A DNA stretch of 17,434 nucleotides from a virus. Taxonomy: Duplodnaviria; Heunggongvirae; Uroviricota; Caudoviricetes. The stretch lies in the IMG/VR virus record IMGVR_UViG_2671180606_000003, positions 1 through 17,434 of that record; one strand, written 5' to 3'. A program made the translations under genes and the position numbers. The notes beneath the pieces were generated by a model that was not told the DNA's origin, did no database searches, and saw only the letters and a program-made list of their open reading frames with translations. This document shows positions 1,980 to 12,552 of the stretch, piece after piece (position 1 is the stretch's first letter; each line of letters starts with the position of its first letter).

Positions 1980-3080
1980 TTATTCCATTTCAAGATCACT
2001 TATCCTCACTTCGAGTTCAATGCTGGTTGTAAAACCGTTATCCGGGCTGACGGTATGTGTCAGGGTGGTAATGGTCCATTCCGCATCATCTATCGGCTGT
2101 TTAAAGCCACTGACTTTCACTGGCATTTCCGTGTAGAGATCTGCCCGCCCTTCCGCCAGTTGTAGCAAGAATGCCGCAACACCGCGTTGCAGACGTTCCC
2201 ACTGCATTTTCGCCGCTCGTTCGGCGTTGCTCCGGTTGGCATAAGTGCGATTAAGTACCAGCACGTTTTCATCCGTACCCACCAGGTAATCGCCCTGCTT
2301 CGCTTCCGGCTCTTTCTTCTGCTTCTTAGTCCTGCGCTTACGCTTCACCGTGGTGCTTTCTTTCTTCGCGGGTTCGCGGGTATGCAACCAGCTGGCAATT
2401 ACGCCCGTATAGGCTCCGCGATCTGCCAGGGTAAAGCGGTGACTGTCGCCGTCCTTACGCGTGATAGTGATCACCGGCAGTGGTTTACCGCTGGCGCTTT
2501 TGCCCTGTCCCTGCCGGATGAATAACAGATTGCCATTTTTCACCGACGCAATAGCACCGTACTGGCGCGCCAGCCGCATCAGAAAACTGCCGTCACTCTC
2601 ATTAGTCTGGTCTATATGTTCCACGGGCTTATCCGACAGGTCATTACCCAGTGCCATCTTCAGCTTGTGACGCGCGGCTATTTCCTTGACCACTTCCCCG
2701 ACAGTGGTCTTGTGCCACGACTTTTCACGGCGGGTATTCAGCGTTTCACGAAAATCAGCACTTCGCGCCCGGATAGTCAGGCGGTCCGGTGCGCCAGTGT
2801 GTTCAATCTCGTCCACCGTGAATGCCCCTTTCGGGAAAAGCGGCTGCCCCTTCCAGCCCAGCGCCAGCGTAATGACCGCACCACGGCGCGGCAGCGCTAT
2901 TTTTCCATCGGCGTCGTCCAGCTCCAGATCAAGCTGGTCCGCTTCAAAGCCCCGGTTATCCGTCAGCGTCAGCCTCATCAGGCGGTTATCCAGCACAGTG
3001 GTGATATCCCTGCCCTCAATACTGATGCTGAATGCGGGAGTTTTGTTGCCTTTGTTAAGCAGTTCAGAGCTGAAATTCAC
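1980..3080 (-). CDS. D: P2-family tail protein D (gpD)
   Basis: 366-aa ORF immediately downstream of U with an ATGA start/stop overlap; size and position (last late gene before ogr) match P2/186 gpD. Confidence 0.88.
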   Translation of the reverse strand: MNFSSELLNKGNKTPAFSISIEGRDITTVLDNRLMRLTLTDNRGFEADQLDLELDDADGKIALPRRGAVITLALGWKGQPLFPKGAFTVDEIEHTGAPDRLTIRARSADFRETLNTRREKSWHKTTVGEVVKEIAARHKLKMALGNDLSDKPVEHIDQTNESDGSFLMRLARQYGAIASVKNGNLLFIRQGQGKSASGKPLPVITITRKDGDSHRFTLADRGAYTGVIASWLHTREPAKKESTTVKRKRRTKKQKKEPEAKQGDYLVGTDENVLVLNRTYANRSNAERAAKMQWERLQRGVAAFLLQLAEGRADLYTEMPVKVSGFKQPIDDAEWTITTLTHTVSPDNGFTTSIELEVRISDLEME

Positions 3081-3562
3081 GACAGCAGCCCTCCCACCGT
3101 TTTACTGATATCACTTAAGGCAGATGTTGCCGTGTCCTGCAGATTATTCAGTTGCGTACTGAGATCACCGAACATATCGGACAGGGATTCATCCACCCGT
3201 TTGAGCGACAGGGTGAACTCAATCCGCCGCGGCATACCGTCGCGGAAAAACTCCGTTTTAGTCAGATTCAGTCCCTCAATCACATACATGCCGTAAATCG
3301 TGCCGCTGCCTTCAATCAGGGGCCATGCTTTTCCCTGTTCTGCCATCTGCTCCAGAGCCAGCAACGACAGCCTGCCGCCCGTTATCTCCGGCATAAGAAC
3401 ACCAGAAAGCGTCAGCATGTCGTTGTCCGGTCCCAGAAACTGCGTGGACGGACGACGGTTTACCCGGCTGTTTGCCGCATGTCGCCAGCTGCGTTGATAC
3501 TGCAGTTCCTGATACGGAACGGTGCGCAGCATAAACACGTACAATCCCAGCACCATCATCAT
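3077..3562 (-). CDS. U: P2-family tail protein U (gpU)
   Basis: 161-aa ORF between the tape-measure remnant and D, the P2 order T-U-D-ogr; size matches gpU (approx. 159 aa). Confidence 0.85.
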   Translation of the reverse strand: MMMVLGLYVFMLRTVPYQELQYQRSWRHAANSRVNRRPSTQFLGPDNDMLTLSGVLMPEITGGRLSLLALEQMAEQGKAWPLIEGSGTIYGMYVIEGLNLTKTEFFRDGMPRRIEFTLSLKRVDESLSDMFGDLSTQLNNLQDTATSALSDISKTVGGLLS

Positions 3563-4479
3563 GCGTCGTATCCCCCCTGATCGCTGTAGTTACTCCTGGC
3601 TTTTGCCTTCAGCCTGCGTTCACGTTCATCAAGCTGGCGTGCCACCTCCCGCGCAATATCCTGCGCACTTTGTCCTGGCTGCATCTGAATGATGATCTGC
3701 GTCGGTGCCTCAATCCTGTAAACGGGCGGCACAGTGGCTGCACGACTCACCATCGCTTCGCCGCCTTTCGCGGGAAGTGCCAAAGGATGCAACGGTGGAA
3801 GCTCTGCAGGCGCGGCAGCAACGCCCATCATTCCGGCAACAACGGCAGCCAGTGCAGCTGTATTTCTCCGGCTGGTCACATTTGCCGGGCCGTTAACAAT
3901 TTCCGGCCCGTTTTCACCGACGATGCCAAACTGCCCGCGCGGGATATAGCCGCCGCTGTCATACATCCCCGCAAAGCCATATCCCCATGACGGAAAACCA
4001 CCCGATGGCATCATCACTTTACCGTTTGTATTCACCGTCGCAGGTTGCTGACGCGTCACACTTTCCGGTAGTTTCGCCTTTGCGGCCTCTTTACTGACAA
4101 CGCCGAGTTTCTCCAGCAACCAGGAAACGCCGGATTTCAGGGAGTCCAGCGGATGCATGACCATATTCAGCCCTTCCGCCAGTGCCTCCCCGAATCGCCG
4201 CCCCATTGCCGCTGCACTCTGCAGTTCGGCAGAGGTTGACTTAACGGGCGTCAGCAGATCAGTAAACCAGCCCCACAGCGCCTGTACTTTGTCGCCAATC
4301 CACTGGAACACGGGCTTAAGCGGTTCGAATGCTGCACTGACGGGACCTGCCGCCGCTTTGAATCCTTCCACCACGCCACCAAGAAATGCGGTGATGGGTT
4401 GCCAGTATTTCCAGACAACCAGCGCCACGCCCGCCAGTGCAGTAACCACAAGACCTATCGGACTGAGCAGAGCACCTAC
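3559..4479 (-). pseudogene. T: Tail tape-measure protein (gpT), C-terminal fragment only
   Basis: Open frame of approx. 300 codons directly upstream of U, Gly/Ala-rich tape-measure-like C-terminus. P2 gpT is approx. 815 aa, but here the frame is closed by an in-frame stop at 4480-4482 and abuts an opposite-strand gene, so the N-terminal two-thirds are deleted. Confidence 0.7.
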
Positions 4480-4501
4480 CTACTGGTTTGTGCAATACGG
4501 C

Positions 4502-5092
4502 ATGACTACACAGCCGTATCAGTTCACGAAAGGCAGCATTTTTCACCTGATGGAACCGGATATCAACCAGGAGATCTACGGCCTGCCCGGTTATCTTTCT
4601 GCCATTCCGTCAGCCCTGCTCAACGAGTCCGCCACGCTGTTCCGCCGCAAGTATTACATTAACGGCAGCCACGCAGGCTTCATCATGTACATGACCGACG
4701 CCGCGCAGAATCAGGAGGATGTGAACAACCTCCGCAACGCGATGAAAAGCGCCAAAGGTCCAGGCAACTTCCGCAACCTGTTTATGTACTCACCTAACGG
4801 CAAAAAAGACGGGCTTCAGATCATCCCATTGTCAGAAGTCGCGGCGAAGGATGAATTTCTTAACATCAAGAACGTGAGTCGGGATGACATGATGGCAGCG
4901 CACCGCGTGCCGCCGCAAATGATGGGGATTATGCCGAATAATGTTGGGGGGTTTGGGGATGTGGAAAAGGCAAGCCGTGTATTCGTCCGAAATGAGCTAA
5001 TGCCACTACAAAAGCGATTACAGGAGATGAATGATTGGCTTGGCAAGGAGGCGATACAGTTTAATACCTACTCACTAGATATAGTCCCATAA
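4502..5092 (+). pseudogene. Q: Probable portal protein (gpQ-like) C-terminal fragment
   Basis: First in-frame ATG after the deletion junction; the upstream part of the six-frame ORF (4157-4501) is antisense to the tape-measure remnant. Strand and position (C-terminus pointing toward the cos-side region) fit P2 gene Q; the translation has a phage-portal-like flavour, unverified. Confidence 0.45.
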
Positions 5093-5126: not shown

Positions 5127-5867
5127 TTACTCAATAGGTTCAAACTCATCCTGAGGAATCAGCGTCGATTGACAGGCTTGGCTTAGTACTCCTGATAATT
5201 TACATAATAACCGATAGTTATGAGGAGCATCATCGCTAATCTTTTCGACCGTTAAAGTGATTGATTTTGGATCATCCAATAACATCTTCTTGATATCATT
5301 ACTTAAATACCTAGGGCAGTAACCAACGATTTCAGCTGGTTTATCTGCACGAACGACAACAGCATCCCCATCGTATTCATTTTGAAGATCCAAGCAAAGA
5401 CGCAAAATTTGCCCCGGTTTCAATTCAGATACACGAGCATTAGCTAAGCTATTTAAGTAACCAAGTCCATGTAAGAAGAAAAAATGCTCAAAGTTACCAT
5501 CAGAATCAACATCAATTTTTTTGAAAATCTGCAGCTGATCAGTGCTTCGTAAGCCTCCCGAGCGAGCAAGAATATCGATAGGATTTACCTTATCTTCTTC
5601 AAATCCAAGCCATTTAATGAAACTCGGATACTCTGGACGTCTCGGTGATAAAAGGCGATTTTTAAAAAGAGGAAACAATTCTTCCGAAACATAAGTTTCA
5701 CGAACATCACTCATGCCGCTAAACTTTGTAAATTTAGTAGATTTAAGAGCACCTTTGGTATACCTGAAAACATACCCCGATTTGCGCTCTTGCAAGTTAC
5801 CAACAACATGCCAGTCTCTGGTATCTGGTGCCTGCCATGCGACGTAAACGGAGTTTGTATTAGTCAT
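5127..5867 (-). CDS. HipA-N-terminal-like (HipS-like) module fused to a C-terminal HIRAN domain (246 aa)
   Basis: Start overlaps the kinase stop in an ATGA. The N-terminal approx. 110 aa (VYVAWQ...VVGNL...YVFRY...LFPLFKNRLLSP...IDILARSGGLRS) resemble the HipA N-terminal subdomain / HipS. The C-terminal approx. 110 aa (HGLGYLNS...LKPGQILRLCLDLQNEYDGDAVVVRADKPAEIVGYCPRYLSNDIKKMLLDD...ITLTVEKI) match the HIRAN pattern as in the HLTF N-terminus. Confidence 0.8.
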   Translation of the reverse strand: MTNTNSVYVAWQAPDTRDWHVVGNLQERKSGYVFRYTKGALKSTKFTKFSGMSDVRETYVSEELFPLFKNRLLSPRRPEYPSFIKWLGFEEDKVNPIDILARSGGLRSTDQLQIFKKIDVDSDGNFEHFFFLHGLGYLNSLANARVSELKPGQILRLCLDLQNEYDGDAVVVRADKPAEIVGYCPRYLSNDIKKMLLDDPKSITLTVEKISDDAPHNYRLLCKLSGVLSQACQSTLIPQDEFEPIE

Positions 5868-6778
5868 TCTAGTAACCTTCTGCGATTTTCCATTACCATT
5901 AACGTTGCAAATCTACGTGCACTGTCGGATATACACGATGAAGGCACTTGGTTAAACACATCTGTAATGGAATCTTCTGTTAAAACGCTCAACTTACCTA
6001 ACCAATGGTCGCGAGCGGCAACTCTCCCTTCAACTGCATGTTGAAATGCTTCAACGGTCAGCAAGGGCTTTTTATCAGTTTTTGCTTTGAATAGCTCAGA
6101 GCGAGCTTTTCTTACAAAACATGGGATTTGTCGATTTTTATCTTTAGTATTAAGCCGTTCGTTACGCTCATCATCTAACATCTCCCTTCCTAAACTAGCG
6201 GCATGATCGTATGTTGGACACAAAAACTGCTCACCAGTTTCATTGTTAAGCATGATCGCCCAATTTTCATGATGGCGATCTTGATTACTCACAAGTGCAT
6301 CGAGCATCAAATATCCACAAAATACATCTGCTGCATTTAGCCCGGTTAGATCATATACACTCGGAGGAGGCTTGATAGATTCCCTATCCAAACAACCCAA
6401 TACCCTTGTGACAGTGTGTTCTCTGACCCTTACCGGCTTTTCCCCGGCTTGTAAAGGCCCAGGATAATCGAATGTCGAACTGTGAAGCACTTCATTTCCC
6501 ATTACCATCCGGAAACCAGATGGAATGATATTCTGAGTCACCACACCGAATCGACCATTGTATCGCGCCAAATCATAGCTAGCATGTGGAATGTTAAGCA
6601 AATGACATAACTCAGCAGCACACTTTTCAGACCAATGCTCGCCAGTACCTGGCCTAGAGTACTTAAACAACTGCAAATTTACAGTGTCATCGGAGAAATA
6701 GAACCAAAACTTCTCTTTGGTTCCTAACTGTTCAAGATCGTTAGCTACGGGGCTAAGCTCTACCAATTGGTATGGCAT
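5864..6778 (-). CDS. HipA-family (HipT/CtkA-like) Ser/Thr kinase core domain (304 aa)
   Basis: P-loop-like 'GTKEKFW' (compare HipA 'GAQEKTAL') and catalytic-loop 'LVSNQDRHHENWAIM' (compare HipA 'IGATDGHAKNFSV'); lacks the HipA N-terminal subdomain. RBS-like 'aggga' 7 nt upstream of the ATG. AT-rich relative to the phage backbone. Confidence 0.85.
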   Translation of the reverse strand: MPYQLVELSPVANDLEQLGTKEKFWFYFSDDTVNLQLFKYSRPGTGEHWSEKCAAELCHLLNIPHASYDLARYNGRFGVVTQNIIPSGFRMVMGNEVLHSSTFDYPGPLQAGEKPVRVREHTVTRVLGCLDRESIKPPPSVYDLTGLNAADVFCGYLMLDALVSNQDRHHENWAIMLNNETGEQFLCPTYDHAASLGREMLDDERNERLNTKDKNRQIPCFVRKARSELFKAKTDKKPLLTVEAFQHAVEGRVAARDHWLGKLSVLTEDSITDVFNQVPSSCISDSARRFATLMVMENRRRLLE

Positions 6779-6937
6779 CTGACATCCCTGTTTAGCGGAT
6801 TATGAATAAGTTAGGTTCCATTTTATCCAAACATTGTCAAATACTCTAAGATTTATTAGATGATAGAGCGATACTGTATGCATGTCCAGCAATCAAATCA
6901 ATATATAACTCTTATATGACTTAGCGCGCGCTCGTAT

Positions 6938-6956: not shown

Positions 6957-7386
6957 TTTGTGTAGTGGTTTTCATGCAGTTGCATAACATAAGCAAAAGC
7001 CCGTCAGAACTGGCAGGCTTCGACATAAACGATCCACTAGCGATCATTCATTTTCATGCAGCATAGGTATGCACCAGAGTTACTTTGAGGTGCAATGGAT
7101 GATACCTACAGATTTGCTACCCAAGGTCATGCTGAAAATCTATCGCATCTGTATGATGCCGCGGACATAGCGAAATCTCCCCATGCAGTGACAAACTACT
7201 TGAGTAAATACTGTTGTGTTACCACAAGAAGAGATTTCAAAAGGAAAACAACGCTATGTTATCTAGTACATATAGCTATAAATGTCTTAATTTTAGCCAA
7301 TACATTGAATTAAATGAAAAAATACTTTAGTTTGTATACTATTTTTTAGCGTTCAAGATTATGCAATTTTTTGGAGAGAACTATAA

Positions 7387-8355
7387 GTGGGATCTTTCAG
7401 TTTACTTGCATCACGACCAATACCAACTGTGCTAGAAACAAGACAGTTTAACTCAGTTAACGGCAGTGACGCCGAATCTTATGCAATGAGTCAATTCATT
7501 CTTGCTTGTAGAGGAGAGGGGCACTGGGGTTCCAGGGAAGACGACAATTCAAAAATAGATTTAATATTATCCTTCGAACATCCATGGGCATCAAAAGAAA
7601 GAATGCTTATATTGTCGCAAGTTAAATCAGGGGCAACTTATGGTCATTTATTAGAGAAAGGTTTTGTATTAAATTCGGCCGCAAAAAAAGCAGCCAAAAG
7701 GACAACTCACCATATATGTGTCGTTTGGGTTGACAGAACTAATCGTAAAGCATTTTGGGCCTATATACATCCAAACACTACCCTTAAAAACCAAACTTAT
7801 GGAGAATATCACTTAATCACTCCGGCTACACGGTTTGACCTGGCTCGCTGTATGTCCATGGTACGTGCAGGTGAAACTGGAGCAAAAGGAATCCATGTAA
7901 GAAGAAGAAACTCACTACTTAATAATCGGCGAGCGTTTGTTAAAAAACGTTATTCTGAACAGAAAGAAATCACATCTCCGGTGCTTGGGAAAATCGAGCT
8001 TACACGGCTGGGTTGGAGACATATGTTCAGAAAGAGTCGCAGAGAAGAAAACAAAGCAACGAGTTTGGACATTATTCCCTACTTGAGAAATTTACTAGTT
8101 CGGTTTCCTTCAACTCATGCTATTACTTCTTCTGATGTCCGTGATTACGGCTGTTTTACTTACCAAAGAAGAGAGCACTTATTGAAATTTAATAATCTAG
8201 AGGTTACTTATGCCAAAGGAGAGGGAAAAAATAAAGTATGTGCTTATATTCGTGTTATAGAAGAAATAAGGTATCCAAAAGATTGGACTAACGCGGTAAT
8301 GCTATCACAGCAGGTTGAAAGACGAGTGGTTTTGAAGTCAGCATATTATAAATAA
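7387..8355 (+). CDS. Hypothetical cargo protein (322 aa), possibly a PD-(D/E)xK-like nuclease fold
   Basis: GTG start 9 nt downstream of 'GGAGAG'. AT-rich. The N-terminal region carries 'KIDLILSFEH...SQVKSG', compatible with a D...E...(Q/E)xK restriction-endonuclease-like motif; the C-terminus is basic. Domain assignment is weak. Confidence 0.65.
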   Translation: MGSFSLLASRPIPTVLETRQFNSVNGSDAESYAMSQFILACRGEGHWGSREDDNSKIDLILSFEHPWASKERMLILSQVKSGATYGHLLEKGFVLNSAAKKAAKRTTHHICVVWVDRTNRKAFWAYIHPNTTLKNQTYGEYHLITPATRFDLARCMSMVRAGETGAKGIHVRRRNSLLNNRRAFVKKRYSEQKEITSPVLGKIELTRLGWRHMFRKSRREENKATSLDIIPYLRNLLVRFPSTHAITSSDVRDYGCFTYQRREHLLKFNNLEVTYAKGEGKNKVCAYIRVIEEIRYPKDWTNAVMLSQQVERRVVLKSAYYK

Positions 8356-8940
8356 CGAGGCCGTTGGGAAGCCAGCACTTGCGCCCATGCTCTGCCAGAT
8401 TCCGGTTTCGAATCGGTTCTCTGGCAATAATGCGGATAGCGTACTGGGCATCAGCCTTAGCTTTTGCACTCAACCCAACGACCAAGTGGTGAAGCATACT
8501 AGTAAAGAAACTTTAATTCTAGATGTTTTGAAGCAATTCTCACATCAAGTATTAATTTTTCTAAAGCAATGACCTAATGGTATGTCAGGTTTCAACGAAA
8601 ATTGGCAACCAATCTAGATAACTGTACCTTTTCAAAAAACTGGTGCGTATCGTTAGTCTCCTTTCGCCGTTGTTCCAGTCTGGTCGCTTCAATAAAAAGC
8701 AAGGCCGCCGTACAGCGAAACTATATAATCATAGCTTAAGCCAAATCACTCATCTAAGGTGTGGCTCCATTAGTAGTTTGAGCGCTAACAGCCCCTCTGG
8801 CGATAAAACTACTCAATACCTGGCACGAAACAAAATCTGGAAGTTACTATTTTTTTGCCCATGACTAACGCCTCGCATGGCTCGTTGATCAACCTTGCTA
8901 GCGTCAGAATCAAGTCCTAACGCCAGCAACGTTCCTAAGC

Positions 8941-9129
8941 CTAACCGGGGAGATCCATTGAACGGTTGTACTCATGAGTACGGATTTTCGCCATTAACTC
9001 ATCGGTCAGCTCCGAAACCCACTGGATAGCAAGCCGCTTCTCTTCATCATCGCACTCACTAGCCGCTACAAGCTTAAGAAAAAAATCAATGCGCTGGAGC
9101 TTCAAAGACTCCAAAAAATAGTCCTGCAT
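8941..9129 (-). CDS. Small protein (62 aa) downstream of a LexA-box promoter; candidate SOS-inducible antirepressor-type gene
   Basis: Strong RBS (minus strand 'TAGGAGGAAAG' then ATG) and a LexA-box promoter about 50 nt upstream; lies between gene A and the cos-side region, where 186 carries its LexA-controlled tum operon. Confidence 0.6.
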   Translation of the reverse strand: MQDYFLESLKLQRIDFFLKLVAASECDDEEKRLAIQWVSELTDELMAKIRTHEYNRSMDLPG

Positions 9130-9171
9130 CTTTCCTCCTATGACACCACACGCAATACTGTATGTATAACC

Positions 9172-9214
9172 ACTGTTTATATTTACAGTATATAATAATC
9201 TTACTGATGTAAAA
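9172..9214 (-). promoter_or_regulatory. SOS (LexA) box overlapping a sigma70-like promoter
   Basis: 'aCTGTttatatttACAGta' (9172-9189) fits the CTGT-N8-ACAG LexA consensus. Minus-strand -35 'TTTTAC' (9214-9209) and -10 'TATACT' (9192-9187), spacer 16, with the box overlapping the -10. Confidence 0.6.
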
Positions 9215-9283: not shown

Positions 9284-11698
9284 TTAATACAGGTTCCGCC
9301 ACTTATCATCTTCCTGCAAACGCTGGTTCCGATAGAAGATACGCAGGCCTGCTCCTGACGGAATACTGCCGCCACGAAGGAGTAAATCGACCTCTTTCTC
9401 GCTGCCATCAAATCCTCTGGACTTCAGTTCATAGACGAGCTGCTGTCGCTGATGGTCTGTAATTCGCTGTTTGTAGTCTTTACGCCGTTTCGGTTTCACC
9501 AGGCGTAACCTTGCAGCCAGTTCCCGGCGCTCTTTTTTGCTCATACTGTGCAGGTATTCGTGCAACTCCTTGTCATCCATGCGGGTAATGTCCGTTCTGG
9601 TATCCCCATCAGCTGATTTGTCTTTCCCTTGTTGGTTCAAATTTTCAGCAAGGGGACAGTTATTGCCACGAGTCCAAGGGGCGCAAGCGCCCTGGTCGGC
9701 TGCCGCCTCCTGAACGTCAACGGCTTTACGAACCATTTTCCACTTCACTGCATGAGTGCAGATCTTGCCCTCTGCAATGGGTGACCAGATGCCATAAATA
9801 CGAATACCGTGATCGCCATAGGCGGTCGGCTCTTCGTTGATTTCATAAGCGGTTCTGATGAGGTGATATTTACGGGGAACCAGTACGCCGCCCTGCTTCA
9901 TGATGTAGGTGGCAAAGCAACCAGCATCAGCTGCAGCCAGAATGGCATCAAGGCGCGGGTTATCCAGTACCGGCGCACCTGCTTTTTTGTCACCCTGTTG
10001 CCTTGCCGCCTGACCAGCCAGCAATCGCAGTTCACGGTAAGCCTGACGCCCCGGAATGCCAAAGAAGCGGAATTGCTGAACACGATGCAGAGACGCCCAG
10101 GCATTAACGTATTCAGCGTTATCACGCAGAGATTTACCCGTTTCCTTGCTGATCTCGCCAGCCAGACCACGCCCGTCAATGTTCTTACTGATATATTTCG
10201 CGATGTAGCTTGTCGGCGTTCCTTTACGCGGGTTAATCAACTCAGACTTAAAGCGCGGCCCAGTGTTATTGCCCAGCTCCTCGCGGTCTTCACGGATGGC
10301 AAACTTACGCAGTAATGCAGTGATGGCGCGGCGGTCTTTTTTGCGCATAAAACACAACAGGTGCCAGTGAACTGTACCGTCATGATGCGGCTCAGCCACC
10401 CGCACGCCATACCAGCGCAATCCGGCTTTGTGCATCGCCTTACGAAATGCAGCAAACATGCCGACCAGATAGTCGCTGCTTTGTCTTACCGTCGAGTTTG
10501 TCCAGGTCGGGTTGGGTCTGCCGTTATTGAGCGTGGAATGGAAACGCGACGGACAGGTGATAGTGTAGAAAACGGCGCAGTCACTGCGCATTTCCGCGAT
10601 AAGCTCCAGACCTTTAACACAGGCCATCATCTCATTGCGGCGATGCGCCGGGTTGCTGCTGCTGGCGTTTACCACATCTTCCATATCCAGCGTGTCGCCG
10701 TCTTCGTTCACCAGTTCATGAGAACGGAAAAACTCCAGCGACTTACGGCGCTGCTCACGTTTATGCATCACGGCTTCATAGCTGACATAGGGGGATGCTT
10801 TTTTGCTGACCAGGCAGACAGCACGCAACTGCTCTTCCCGCCATTCGCAACGCATCTTCCATAATTTCCGATACCACCAGTCGGCACACAACATACGCGC
10901 CAGCGAACCCGGAATGAGTTCATAGGGCACGGGTTTACGGCGGTTTCTTTTCCGACGGAGTTGCTCAAACGCAGGCGGAATAACATCCAGACGCAGGGTT
11001 TCCGCTGCCACCTTTTCCCATGTTTTGCGGATTTCTTCTGGCTTAACGTCATCGGTGGCATACAAATCACCACAAGCGGCATCAAGGCACATACTCATAT
11101 GCGCAGCGACAAGGGTAGACAGGCGCTTCACCTGATCCTGACTCATTTCAGGCAGGATAAGCAGGCCATCCAGCCCTTCATGGCTTGCCATAAAGCGAAA
11201 AGAAGTGGATAGCTGACAGTCGCGGACATGCTCCAGTCGTTCCAGACATGGCTTAATCGTCTCACGCAAATAGCGGGAATAAGCCTTTGGCCTGCCCAGG
11301 CTGCTGAAATATTCAATACGTTGCATCAGCGGCTTGCTGATATGGGAAGGCTGGGCGTTGACGTCAGCCAGAATGACCATGTCTGGATTAAAACGCTGCT
11401 GCTCATGCGCCAGCTTTGCCCGGCTAATGAGCTTATCCTGCTCCATTTCGCGCTGGACAGGATCACGGGATTCATTAAAGAAATAACGCTCCCAGACCTG
11501 ATCACTCAGTGCCTCGCGGCGCAGTTGTTCCTGCTCGTTATCGGCAGCGTACAGAGTGATCAGGTTTGAAAGTGCAGAAACCGGCGCAACTTCCGCCGGG
11601 TCCAGATAAGGGTTAATGGCCTTTTTTGGGCTGTTCCATGAGAATGCTGCGGCGACCTCGTTAAAGCCGCTGCAGTTGTTCATATCAGCATGGCTCAT
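9284..11698 (-). CDS. A: P2/186-family replication initiation protein A (rolling-circle nickase)
   Basis: Approx. 804-aa ORF; start placed at the Met whose ATG overlaps the dam stop (ATGA), while the six-frame ORF starts at 11725. Contains the active-site tyrosine motif 'YIAKYISK'; follows dam as in 186-like phages. Confidence 0.88.
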
Positions 11699-12552
11699 GC
11701 ACGCACTCCGTACACGGCGGAACAATCCACGCCACGCGAAGGATCAAATCCTACCCAGCAGCGCGGCCCGGAAACAGCAATGATTTCTGTTGCAGATTTA
11801 CTCTCACCAGCTGCCACGCCGATGCTGCGTTTTGCCTTGATGTAGTGGTGAGTAAAATTGCGATACAGCGAACGGATCAGGGATGTGTCACTGTTAGAAA
11901 TAATGACCGGATATCCTTCTGATGACCGATGTTCAAGAACAGATGCCAGGTGATACTGGTCATCTTCAGTGAAACCATCAGTGTGATAGCCTGAAAACGT
12001 ACCGTCATAAGGCGGATCGCAATACACCACATCCCCCGCGTGCAACATCGCCAGCGTTTCATCGAAGCTGGCGCAGATAAACGTTGCCCGCTGAGCTTTT
12101 ACTGCAAATGCACGAATTTCTTTTTCAGGAAAATACGGATTTTTATAATTACCGTAGGGAATGTTGAAATGCCCGCTCTTGTTATAGCGACATAAACCAC
12201 GGTAACCGTGACGATTGAGATACAGGAAATATATCGCTTTCATGAAATCAGTAATTTCAGTTGAGTAATTAAACTCCTGCCTTATGTTGTAATAATCCAT
12301 CTCCCTGTTTGCGTTCTCAAATAAAACTCTGGCGCGAGATATAAACGATTCACAATCAGCGGCAACCTTTTTATAGAGGTTGATTAAATCAGGATTAATA
12401 TCCGCAACCAGATAGCTGGGATAATCCGTCTCCATCATCACAGCACAGGAACCCGCGAAAGGTTCAACCAGTCGCGGGCCAGCAGGAAGATGTTTTTTCA
12501 GTTCGGACATTATGGCAGTTTTATTTCCCGCCCATTTCAGGATGGTGCTCAT
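11695..12552 (-). CDS. dam: DNA adenine methyltransferase (Dam family)
   Basis: 'ILKWAGNK', 'VEPFAGS' and 'VVYCDPPY' motifs and close overall resemblance to E. coli Dam; start placed at '[11 protein letters not shown]', whose ATG overlaps the upstream TraR stop (the six-frame ORF extends to 12612). Confidence 0.92.

Follow-up and report, generated by a model that had tools for sequence, protein, structure and literature searches.

What occupies the 585 bases between the stop codon of a gene for a 322-amino-acid protein (at 8355) and that of a gene for a 62-amino-acid protein (at 8941) in a P2-like prophage of Escherichia coli? The DNA that we analysed, called here the window, is 17,434 nt long (IMG/VR record IMGVR_UViG_2671180606_000003). 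A previous sequence-only reading of positions 8356–8940 had described them as poor in open reading frames (ORFs), with a GC-rich segment at 8360–8500 that was taken for the probable relic of a displaced gene; a small RNA was left as the fallback. It is the fallback that turns out to be the best-supported reading, because the segment has a conserved and covarying fold. We propose that 8359–8483 is a gene for a structured non-coding RNA of about 125 nt, read from the minus strand and convergent with the gene for the 322-amino-acid protein, a predicted nuclease; that the two travel as one two-part cassette; and that the RNA partners the nuclease. We put the probability of this reading at about 60%.

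The stretch is indeed poor in ORFs. All of those within 8356–8940 are short (42–73 amino acids), and none of the three tested (8288–8497, 8387–8572 and 8643–8864) reached the Pfam threshold. The GC-rich segment is equally real: GC content is 0.495 in the 200 nt at 8300–8499 as against 0.35–0.42 around them, and 0.56 in the element itself (8359–8483) as against 0.37 in the 300 nt on each side. This excess is not due to chance, because the homologous element is richer in GC than its flanks in all 26 loci described below. The minus-strand frame that had been said to read like a protein exists, as an open ORF of 69 amino acids at 8288–8497 whose translation begins MLHHLVVGLSAKAKADAQYAIRIIAREPIRNRNLAEHG, and the hotspot in which it lies does turn over its cargo; both facts would suit a relic of a displaced protein-coding gene at 8360–8500. 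The likeness to a protein found no support. Among 5.8 billion proteins the only match of this frame was itself, at 99% identity, in a three-member cluster called from the same DNA, and no tblastn match in phage and plasmid collections was better than E = 3. Moreover, the DNA has been kept beside homologues of the nuclease with only 43–64% protein identity, where a neutral relic would not survive; its indels do not come in multiples of three; in 16 of the 26 loci the frame is not open, a stop-free frame on either strand being present in only 10–11; and conservation tracks base pairs, not codons. A displaced coding gene is thus the least probable of the explanations that we considered, with almost nothing left in its favour, and for 8359–8483 it is already refuted by the sequence comparisons: neither gene nor pseudogene is indicated there, by homology of any frame or by frame-preserving conservation. 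A fragment of a tRNA or transfer-messenger RNA (tmRNA) was also considered, as GGTTTCGAATC resembles a T-loop, and rejected; ARAGORN finds only ssrA in the window, and the string is not kept in other loci.

A word-indexed search detected 179 relatives of the 322-amino-acid protein, and the family is rare, as it makes up 128 clusters at 50% identity among 1.84 billion representatives. DNA of relatives was retrieved from metagenomes, genomes and plasmids. Wherever a homologue of 43–82% identity keeps its downstream DNA, that DNA contains the element, starting 0–15 nt after the stop codon, and 26 distinct elements were obtained in this way (individual loci are cited below by L numbers). Their hosts include Gamma-, Beta- and Alphaproteobacteria, AT-rich unknown lineages and one cyanobacterium. 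In Alcanivorax hongdengensis, where the homologous protein is 64% identical, the DNA after the stop codon aligns to 8356–8495 of the window as conserved blocks separated by indels of 1, 2 and 3 bases. Neutral DNA would not have stayed alignable over this distance and a coding frame would not have tolerated such indels.

In order to describe the element we built a covariance model, R1, from a 15-sequence seed and a structure defined by hand, and realigned the loci to it. This was needed because RNAalifold, run on a plain MAFFT alignment of 17 early sequences, recovered 15 pairs only, the variable hairpins having been misaligned. R1 has exactly one match in each of the 26 loci and nothing else in 190 kb; 11 of the matches lie outside the seed, and all of them are antisense to the nuclease gene. 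The element in the window scores 94.1 bits (E = 1e-16). Rfam 15 has no match over 8356–8500 at E up to 10, and, at E up to 1, none over the element of six further loci, so that R1 is a model of an RNA family absent from Rfam.

Read on the minus strand, all copies have the same three-way-junction shape, with a closing stem (P1), a side hairpin (P1a) and a long arm made of P2, P3, P4 and P5. In the window, the RNA runs from 8483 to 8359. P1 pairs 8483–8471 with 8371–8359 and is followed by a junction AGU (8470–8468) and by P1a (8467–8448); the arm then consists of P2 (8447–8439 with 8382–8372), P3 (8433–8431 with 8391–8389), P4 (8426–8420 with 8399–8393) and the terminal hairpin P5 (8416–8402), and the conserved internal loops read GCUAUC and AGAGCAUnGnnGCAAG. 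Across loci, P1 has 6–14 pairs and leads into a short junction with the consensus UGUGUGC; P1a is optional. The arm comprises P2 (CCAGUGC plus GC), a P3 of 2–3 pairs, an occasional inserted hairpin, P4 (UGYCA with UGRCA) and P5, and the sequence of the internal loop is conserved, with GCUAUC on one side and AGAGCAUUGAAGCAAG on the other. P1, in contrast, has no fixed sequence: its arms are GGUCGUUGGG/CCCAACGGCC in the window and GAGAGCU/AGCUCUC, AAGACUU/AAGUCUU or GGGUG/CACCC elsewhere. Total length varies from 91 to 153 nt, by differences that are not multiples of three.

This fold is kept by compensatory changes. Standard pairs fill 92.6% of the 936 pair cells, compared with 75.1% when partners are shuffled and 32–43% when they are slid by 1–3 columns. 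Both sides have changed in 30 of the 40 pairs (177 cells), which is the compensatory change expected of a structured non-coding RNA, and none of 500 shuffles reached any of the five structure measures.

On which strand does the fold act? A G–U pair on one strand becomes an A–C mismatch on the other, so that an A–C cell in the minus-strand reading would be G–U if the plus strand were the one that folds. The minus-strand reading contains 96 G–U and 14 A–C cells in the model-fitted alignment, and 54 and 7 respectively in a sequence-only MAFFT alignment. Relative to random partners for each column pair, G–U is kept at 0.66 of expectation and A–C at 0.20, as low as any mismatch. Folding energy, too, is lower for the minus strand in all 17 loci compared; in the window its minimum free energy is −52.3 kcal/mol (z −3.5), as against −46.1 kcal/mol (z −2.8) for the plus strand. 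The excess of G–U, the depletion of A–C and the greater stability of the minus strand together show that selection maintains the fold in the strand antisense to the nuclease gene. These data bear on a different explanation, that the plus strand is the functional one and the element forms the 3′ untranslated end of the nuclease mRNA, where it would be a terminator, stabiliser or regulator. Such a structure would begin at the stop codon, as the element does in every locus, and would account for the tight coupling to the gene with no need of a second promoter; the plus strand, too, is more stable than its shuffled versions. It would not produce the asymmetry between G–U and A–C or the uniform advantage of the minus strand, no T-run follows the element on the plus strand of the window, and promoter-like sites cluster at the 5′ end of the minus-strand element. 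We consider a role in the mRNA 3′ end improbable, slightly more so than the cofactor role discussed below.

The clustering of promoter-like sites suggests that a promoter of its own, close upstream of P1, drives the RNA. Ten of the 26 loci have a site that resembles a sigma-70 promoter in at least 8 of 12 consensus positions and whose −10 element ends 1–20 nt upstream of P1, as against a background of 7% (binomial P = 6e-6). A consensus scan of the window found a minus-strand site at 8516–8543 (−35 GTGAGA at 8543–8538, a 16-nt spacer, −10 TAGAAT at 8521–8516) that could drive the RNA, although by itself it is weak. The equivalent place in L039 reads TTAAAA-16-TATAAT. In L040, L041 and L045 the gene after the element is co-directional with the nuclease gene, so that no convergent neighbouring gene could supply the transcript. 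A short motif, CTATTGGCA, is present 14–35 nt upstream of P1 in L011, L026 and L040 (as TTTGCCAAAC in L004); a −35 region and a binding site are both conceivable.

The RNA gene would then be read from this promoter and end at the nuclease stop codon. The 3′ arm of P1 lies −8 to +14 nt from the stop codon (median 0.5), and in about half of the loci the stop codon itself lies inside the stem. A terminator would not fit into so short a gap. The nuclease mRNA must therefore continue into the element, and its tail would overlap that of the RNA.

Gene and element also move together. Of 2.9 million viral contigs scanned for the exact pattern, only four have the element, and all four carry the nuclease gene. 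Between the window and L039, which encodes an 82%-identical relative, DNA homology extends over 7398–8480, exactly the gene plus the element, and flanking genes differ in every locus. We conclude from the sharp ends of this homology, the different neighbours and the co-occurrence that gene and element form one cassette. A 25-nt imperfect inverted repeat (7303–7327 and 8547–8571, 72% complementary) brackets gene and RNA in the window; the related cassette L039 does not share it, and it could mark the cassette ends or be a chance feature of AT-rich DNA.

A mobile unit of this kind invites comparison with the gene cassettes of integrons, and the element might then be a site that folds as single-stranded DNA, like attC or the recognition site of another recombinase or a nuclease, and mobilises a one-gene cassette. 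The layout is similar: an attC site is an element of 60–140 nt directly after the cassette ORF, of which the folded, functional strand is the non-coding one, and here an ORF is followed by an imperfect palindrome of 90–150 nt whose non-coding strand appears to be functional. The unit has sharp boundaries and recurs in many different contexts, and the P1 arms of the window and L004 (GTTGGG...CCCAAC) resemble attC core sequences. In attC, however, RYYYAAC (R″) stands at the 5′ end and GTTRRRY (R′) at the 3′ end, and cassettes form arrays beside intI. The core polarity here is the reverse, and most loci lack the GTT/AAC motif. The element is present once per locus and never as an array, with no integron integrase nearby. 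The fold is a branched three-way junction, not the hairpin of attC, and its internal loops are conserved across phyla together with one protein family, unlike those of attC sites. We rejected an integron attC site on the grounds of polarity, unconserved core motifs, copy number and branching, and regard a DNA-folded site of any kind as very unlikely, though not as remote as a coding relic.

The protein half of the proposed pair is encoded by the plus strand at 7387–8355 and is predicted to join an N-terminal nuclease of the DUF4365/DREN type, with a PD-(D/E)XK fold, to a C-terminal NTF2-like domain. Its AlphaFold2 model has a mean predicted local distance difference test score (pLDDT) of 90.3. 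In Foldseek searches of the PDB the N-terminal half matched the DREN-APAZ chains of SPARDA (E = 1e-7) and also the Hjc resolvase, which are PD-(D/E)XK folds, and the C-terminal half matched NTF2-like/ketosteroid-isomerase folds. Pfam DUF4365, weak in this protein (E = 0.12), is annotated in many homologues. It has been described as the nuclease of short-Argonaute systems, and the DREN fold is that of the SPARDA effector nuclease (PMC10810196, PMC12205087). RefSeq places the start of the gene at 7486, which gives 289 amino acids. Homologues are conserved from residue 5 of the 322-residue form, with N22, N25, G26, D28 and E30 invariant, so that the RefSeq start is probably too far downstream. 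D58 and K80, candidate catalytic residues, are likewise invariant in the protein alignment.

The company that these genes keep points to defence. One locus adjoins Gabija-like genes (L040) and another dnd-associated and HNH genes (L042), and a distant homologue (L046), in a locus where R1 finds no element, adjoins a type I restriction system and a SIR2 protein. We infer that the RNA acts as the partner of the nuclease. We tentatively favour, at clearly less than even odds, a restraining role like that of an antitoxin or regulator, in a module of the abortive-infection type. The RNA would hold the nuclease in check by one of two routes, its conserved loops binding the protein or its 3′ end pairing, as an antisense, with the mRNA, and the nuclease would be released during phage infection. 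That loop sequences are conserved across phyla suggests binding to an equally conserved protein; antisense control of the nuclease mRNA would be possible as well, through the tail-to-tail overlap. We also asked whether the RNA could pair in trans with the part of the nuclease mRNA where translation starts. Cognate duplexes were 2.8 kcal/mol better than non-cognate ones (p = 0.002), yet one of four control segments from the coding region behaved in the same way (p = 0.01). ACTTGC, at codons 5–8, was tried as a complement to the conserved GCAAGU of the RNA and rejected, since it occurs in a few loci only and synonymous positions there vary freely.

The same structural and co-occurrence evidence would be expected if the RNA instead helped the DREN-type nuclease as a positive cofactor, activating or directing it in the manner of a scaffold, sensor or guide. 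DREN nucleases are effectors of the RNA-guided SPARDA systems (PMC12205087), and L043 fits a cofactor better than an essential antitoxin: an insertion sequence (IS) of the IS21 family lies in the P5 loop of its RNA (4964–5026), the far half of the RNA is not found beyond the IS, and the nuclease ORF is intact. Against this, we saw no variable segment that could serve as a guide: on its 3′ side the RNA is complementary to its own gene, and on its 5′ side there is no pattern of repeats or spacers. Nor is there an Argonaute or APAZ domain. A cofactor role is in our view unlikely. We would give the same low standing to a more specific proposal, that the locus represents a new class of immune nuclease, dependent on RNA and independent of Argonaute: a ribonucleoprotein of the DREN-type nuclease in which the three-way-junction RNA is neither antisense regulator nor simple antitoxin and serves as a sensor or switch that licenses cleavage of DNA or RNA during phage infection.

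How does a nuclease with a restraining RNA compare with known systems? In its working, such a module would be most like toxin–antitoxin loci that have a dedicated RNA, although it lacks defining features of both type I and type III. In several type I systems the antisense RNA is convergent with the toxin gene and overlaps it at the 3′ end, as in txpA/RatA and bsrG/SR4 of Bacillus subtilis and fst/RNAII of pAD1. The present locus has, like them, a predicted cis-encoded RNA convergent to a potentially harmful gene, and such loci are carried by prophages or mobile elements; if both strands are transcribed, the gap of −8 to +14 nt would also force a 3′ overlap. The differences lie in the protein, a soluble two-domain protein of 322 amino acids with a nuclease fold where a type I toxin is a small and usually hydrophobic membrane peptide, and in the RNA, whose covarying three-way junction with conserved loops goes far beyond what antisense pairing needs. 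Type III systems (ToxIN, CptIN and TenpIN) likewise combine a protein effector with a dedicated structured RNA, which here would bind the effector, on mobile DNA and in abortive-infection defence. Their RNA consists of tandem repeats upstream on the same strand, whereas the element is single-copy, downstream and on the opposite strand; their toxin is an endoribonuclease that processes the RNA, whereas here the fold is PD-(D/E)XK. We found no reverse-transcriptase domain, as a retron would have, among the neighbouring genes.

SPARDA couples RNA to nuclease activity in defence (PMC10810196, PMC12205087) and has the same DUF4365/DREN fold as our N-terminal domain. The protein studied here lacks APAZ and is NTF2-like in its C-terminal half, no Argonaute gene stands beside the nuclease in any locus seen, and its RNA is a fixed structured molecule encoded beside the gene, whereas SPARDA guides are small and derived from the invader. 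Divona, as described in part of a preprint, is a single-gene anti-phage system with DUF4365 from chromosomal integrons of Vibrio (bioRxiv 10.1101/2024.07.02.601686). Compared by domain description, it too has an N-terminal DUF4365 nuclease domain fused to another domain; in Divona the latter is crr6 (PF08847), which Pfam does not find in the 322-amino-acid protein, and the part of the source available mentions no RNA partner (10.1101/2024.07.02.601686). A search of the literature, incomplete in its coverage so that a prior description is possible, found no account of the nuclease and RNA as a pair.

Several observations weigh against the proposed nuclease–RNA cassette. The case for minus-strand transcription is built from sequence alone: the best promoter-like site of the window matches only 9 of 12 positions, with its −10 element ending 32 nt upstream of P1, and no clear intrinsic terminator follows P1, where U-richness is moderate and partly forced by conserved C-terminal codons. 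The role of the nuclease in defence is deduced from context, the protein itself having no match in PADLOC, NCBIfam or the PHROGs. No conserved pairing was found between the RNA and the start region of the mRNA. The model-fitted alignment is biased towards the structure, although the sequence-only alignment agrees nonetheless. R1 has no significant match beside the distant homologues L033, L034 and L046 (37–48% identity), even with filters off; L046 contains scattered resemblances (CCAGCG...CGCUGG and GUGUGCG), which might be a diverged form of the element. Finally, the broken RNA beside an intact nuclease ORF in L043 speaks against an essential antitoxin, although this is a single case.

If the RNA element occupies the first part of the stretch, what is the remainder? 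Among 5426 complete E. coli genomes, a nucleotide search found 8300–8842 in only four, always with the gene for the 322-amino-acid protein, and 8843–9200 in about 1100, at 87–92% identity. Carriers of the cassette include E. coli SCU-115, 442/2 and SW071614. Positions 8544–8630 form an AT-rich junction between cargo cassette and phage backbone in which no feature was identified, and which has no similarity beyond the four E. coli genomes and four IMG/VR contigs, all carrying an identical cassette. A translated search, which yielded nothing for the GC-rich frame, revealed a relic elsewhere: 8631–8863, on the minus strand, appears to be a decayed pseudogene of a P2-like backbone gene resembling gp46 of Cartapus (86 amino acids), interrupted by frameshifts and in-frame stops. 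In tblastn, gp46 residues 2–24, 20–64 and 66–86 are covered by three colinear segments, each in a different frame of the minus strand, and the middle segment contains four in-frame stops. Statistically this is modest support, with E = 2e-4 for a very small search space; the DNA at 8818–8939 is homologous to Cartapus at 79.8%. On this evidence 8631–8863 is the sole real gene relic of the stretch, and it derives from the backbone and not from displaced cargo. Within it, at 8704–8718 (minus), lies a terminator-like hairpin followed by CTTGCTTTTT, which could stop SOS-driven transcription of the 62-amino-acid-protein gene short of the RNA element.

Positions 8864–8940 are a conserved spacer of the phage backbone, defined by alignment with Cartapus and phage 500465-1 and matched by about 670–1100 E. 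coli genomes. The order in Cartapus is gpA, the same 62-codon gene, dinI, spacer and the small gene gp46. Unlike in Cartapus and many E. coli prophages, dinI is cleanly absent from the window, where the spacer comes directly after the 62-codon gene; the last five codons of that gene differ as well (MDLPG* in the window against MDVIS*). The region compared with the window here is 1123–1356 of L002. The gene itself (8941–9129, minus) is a backbone gene downstream of gpA, assigned to phrog_698 (function unknown; E = 1e-36), and is preceded at 9173–9188 by a perfect LexA box, CTGT-N8-ACAG, the only one in the window.

The window forms part of a P2-like prophage of E. coli. The only call of tRNA or tmRNA type by ARAGORN is ssrA, at 698–1060, with the tag peptide ANDENYALAA; the position of this adjoining tmRNA gene, at the left side of the prophage, means that ssrA is the site of the P2-like element. 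Other bearers of the same cargo, such as strain SW071614, have the related prophage between ybjL and rcdA instead. From right to left the gene order is integrase, CI-type repressor, Dam methylase, gpA (replication gene A, 9284–11725, minus), the 62-codon gene, the variable hotspot, a portal fragment (4157–5092, plus), gpU (3077–3562, minus) and gpD (1980–3080, minus). Over 1980–5092, gpD, gpU and an ORF of 296 amino acids without Pfam match (3559–4449, minus) pass directly into the portal fragment; the prophage is internally deleted, with most structural genes gone and the hotspot cargo intact. Variable genes between replication gene A and the portal gene or cos are the hallmark of the P2-like defence hotspot, and this is the arrangement in the window; related prophages hold different cargo at the same position. 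With four of 5426 genomes carrying the cargo stretch 8356–8817 and about 1100 the backbone to its right, the turnover suggested by the sequence-only reading is consistent with our data.

A second cargo system adjoins the nuclease cassette. It consists of a HipA-like kinase (5864–6778, minus) and a HIRAN-domain protein (5127–5867, minus), both of which PADLOC matches, at E = 1e-122 and 3e-93, as components of the candidate system PDC-M03. About 100 nt upstream of this operon, at 6874–6889, CTGTATGCATGTCCAG differs from CTGT-N8-ACAG by one mismatch, and its surroundings resemble those of the perfect box at 9173–9188 as a 21-nt direct repeat (81% identical). The kinase/HIRAN system may be under SOS control.

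In the hotspots of phages, cargo that consists of a single nuclease gene is mostly annotated 'hypothetical protein' and the adjoining DNA is ignored. The present case is a warning that GC-rich, gene-like fragments beside cargo genes can be RNA genes, and R1 gives annotators a covariance model with which to find this one. The structural evidence is strong and places the element among the better-supported unannotated RNA folds obtainable from sequence; transcription and function are deduced. We consider 8359–8483 a strong candidate for a new family of structured RNA that partners a DREN-NTF2 nuclease. The RNA is tied to a rare family of nucleases whose catalytic fold is the killing module of short-Argonaute immunity, and if it restrains or licenses the nuclease, the pair would be a compact two-part immune or toxin module of new design, in which a large nuclease is combined with a structured RNA encoded tail to tail with it.

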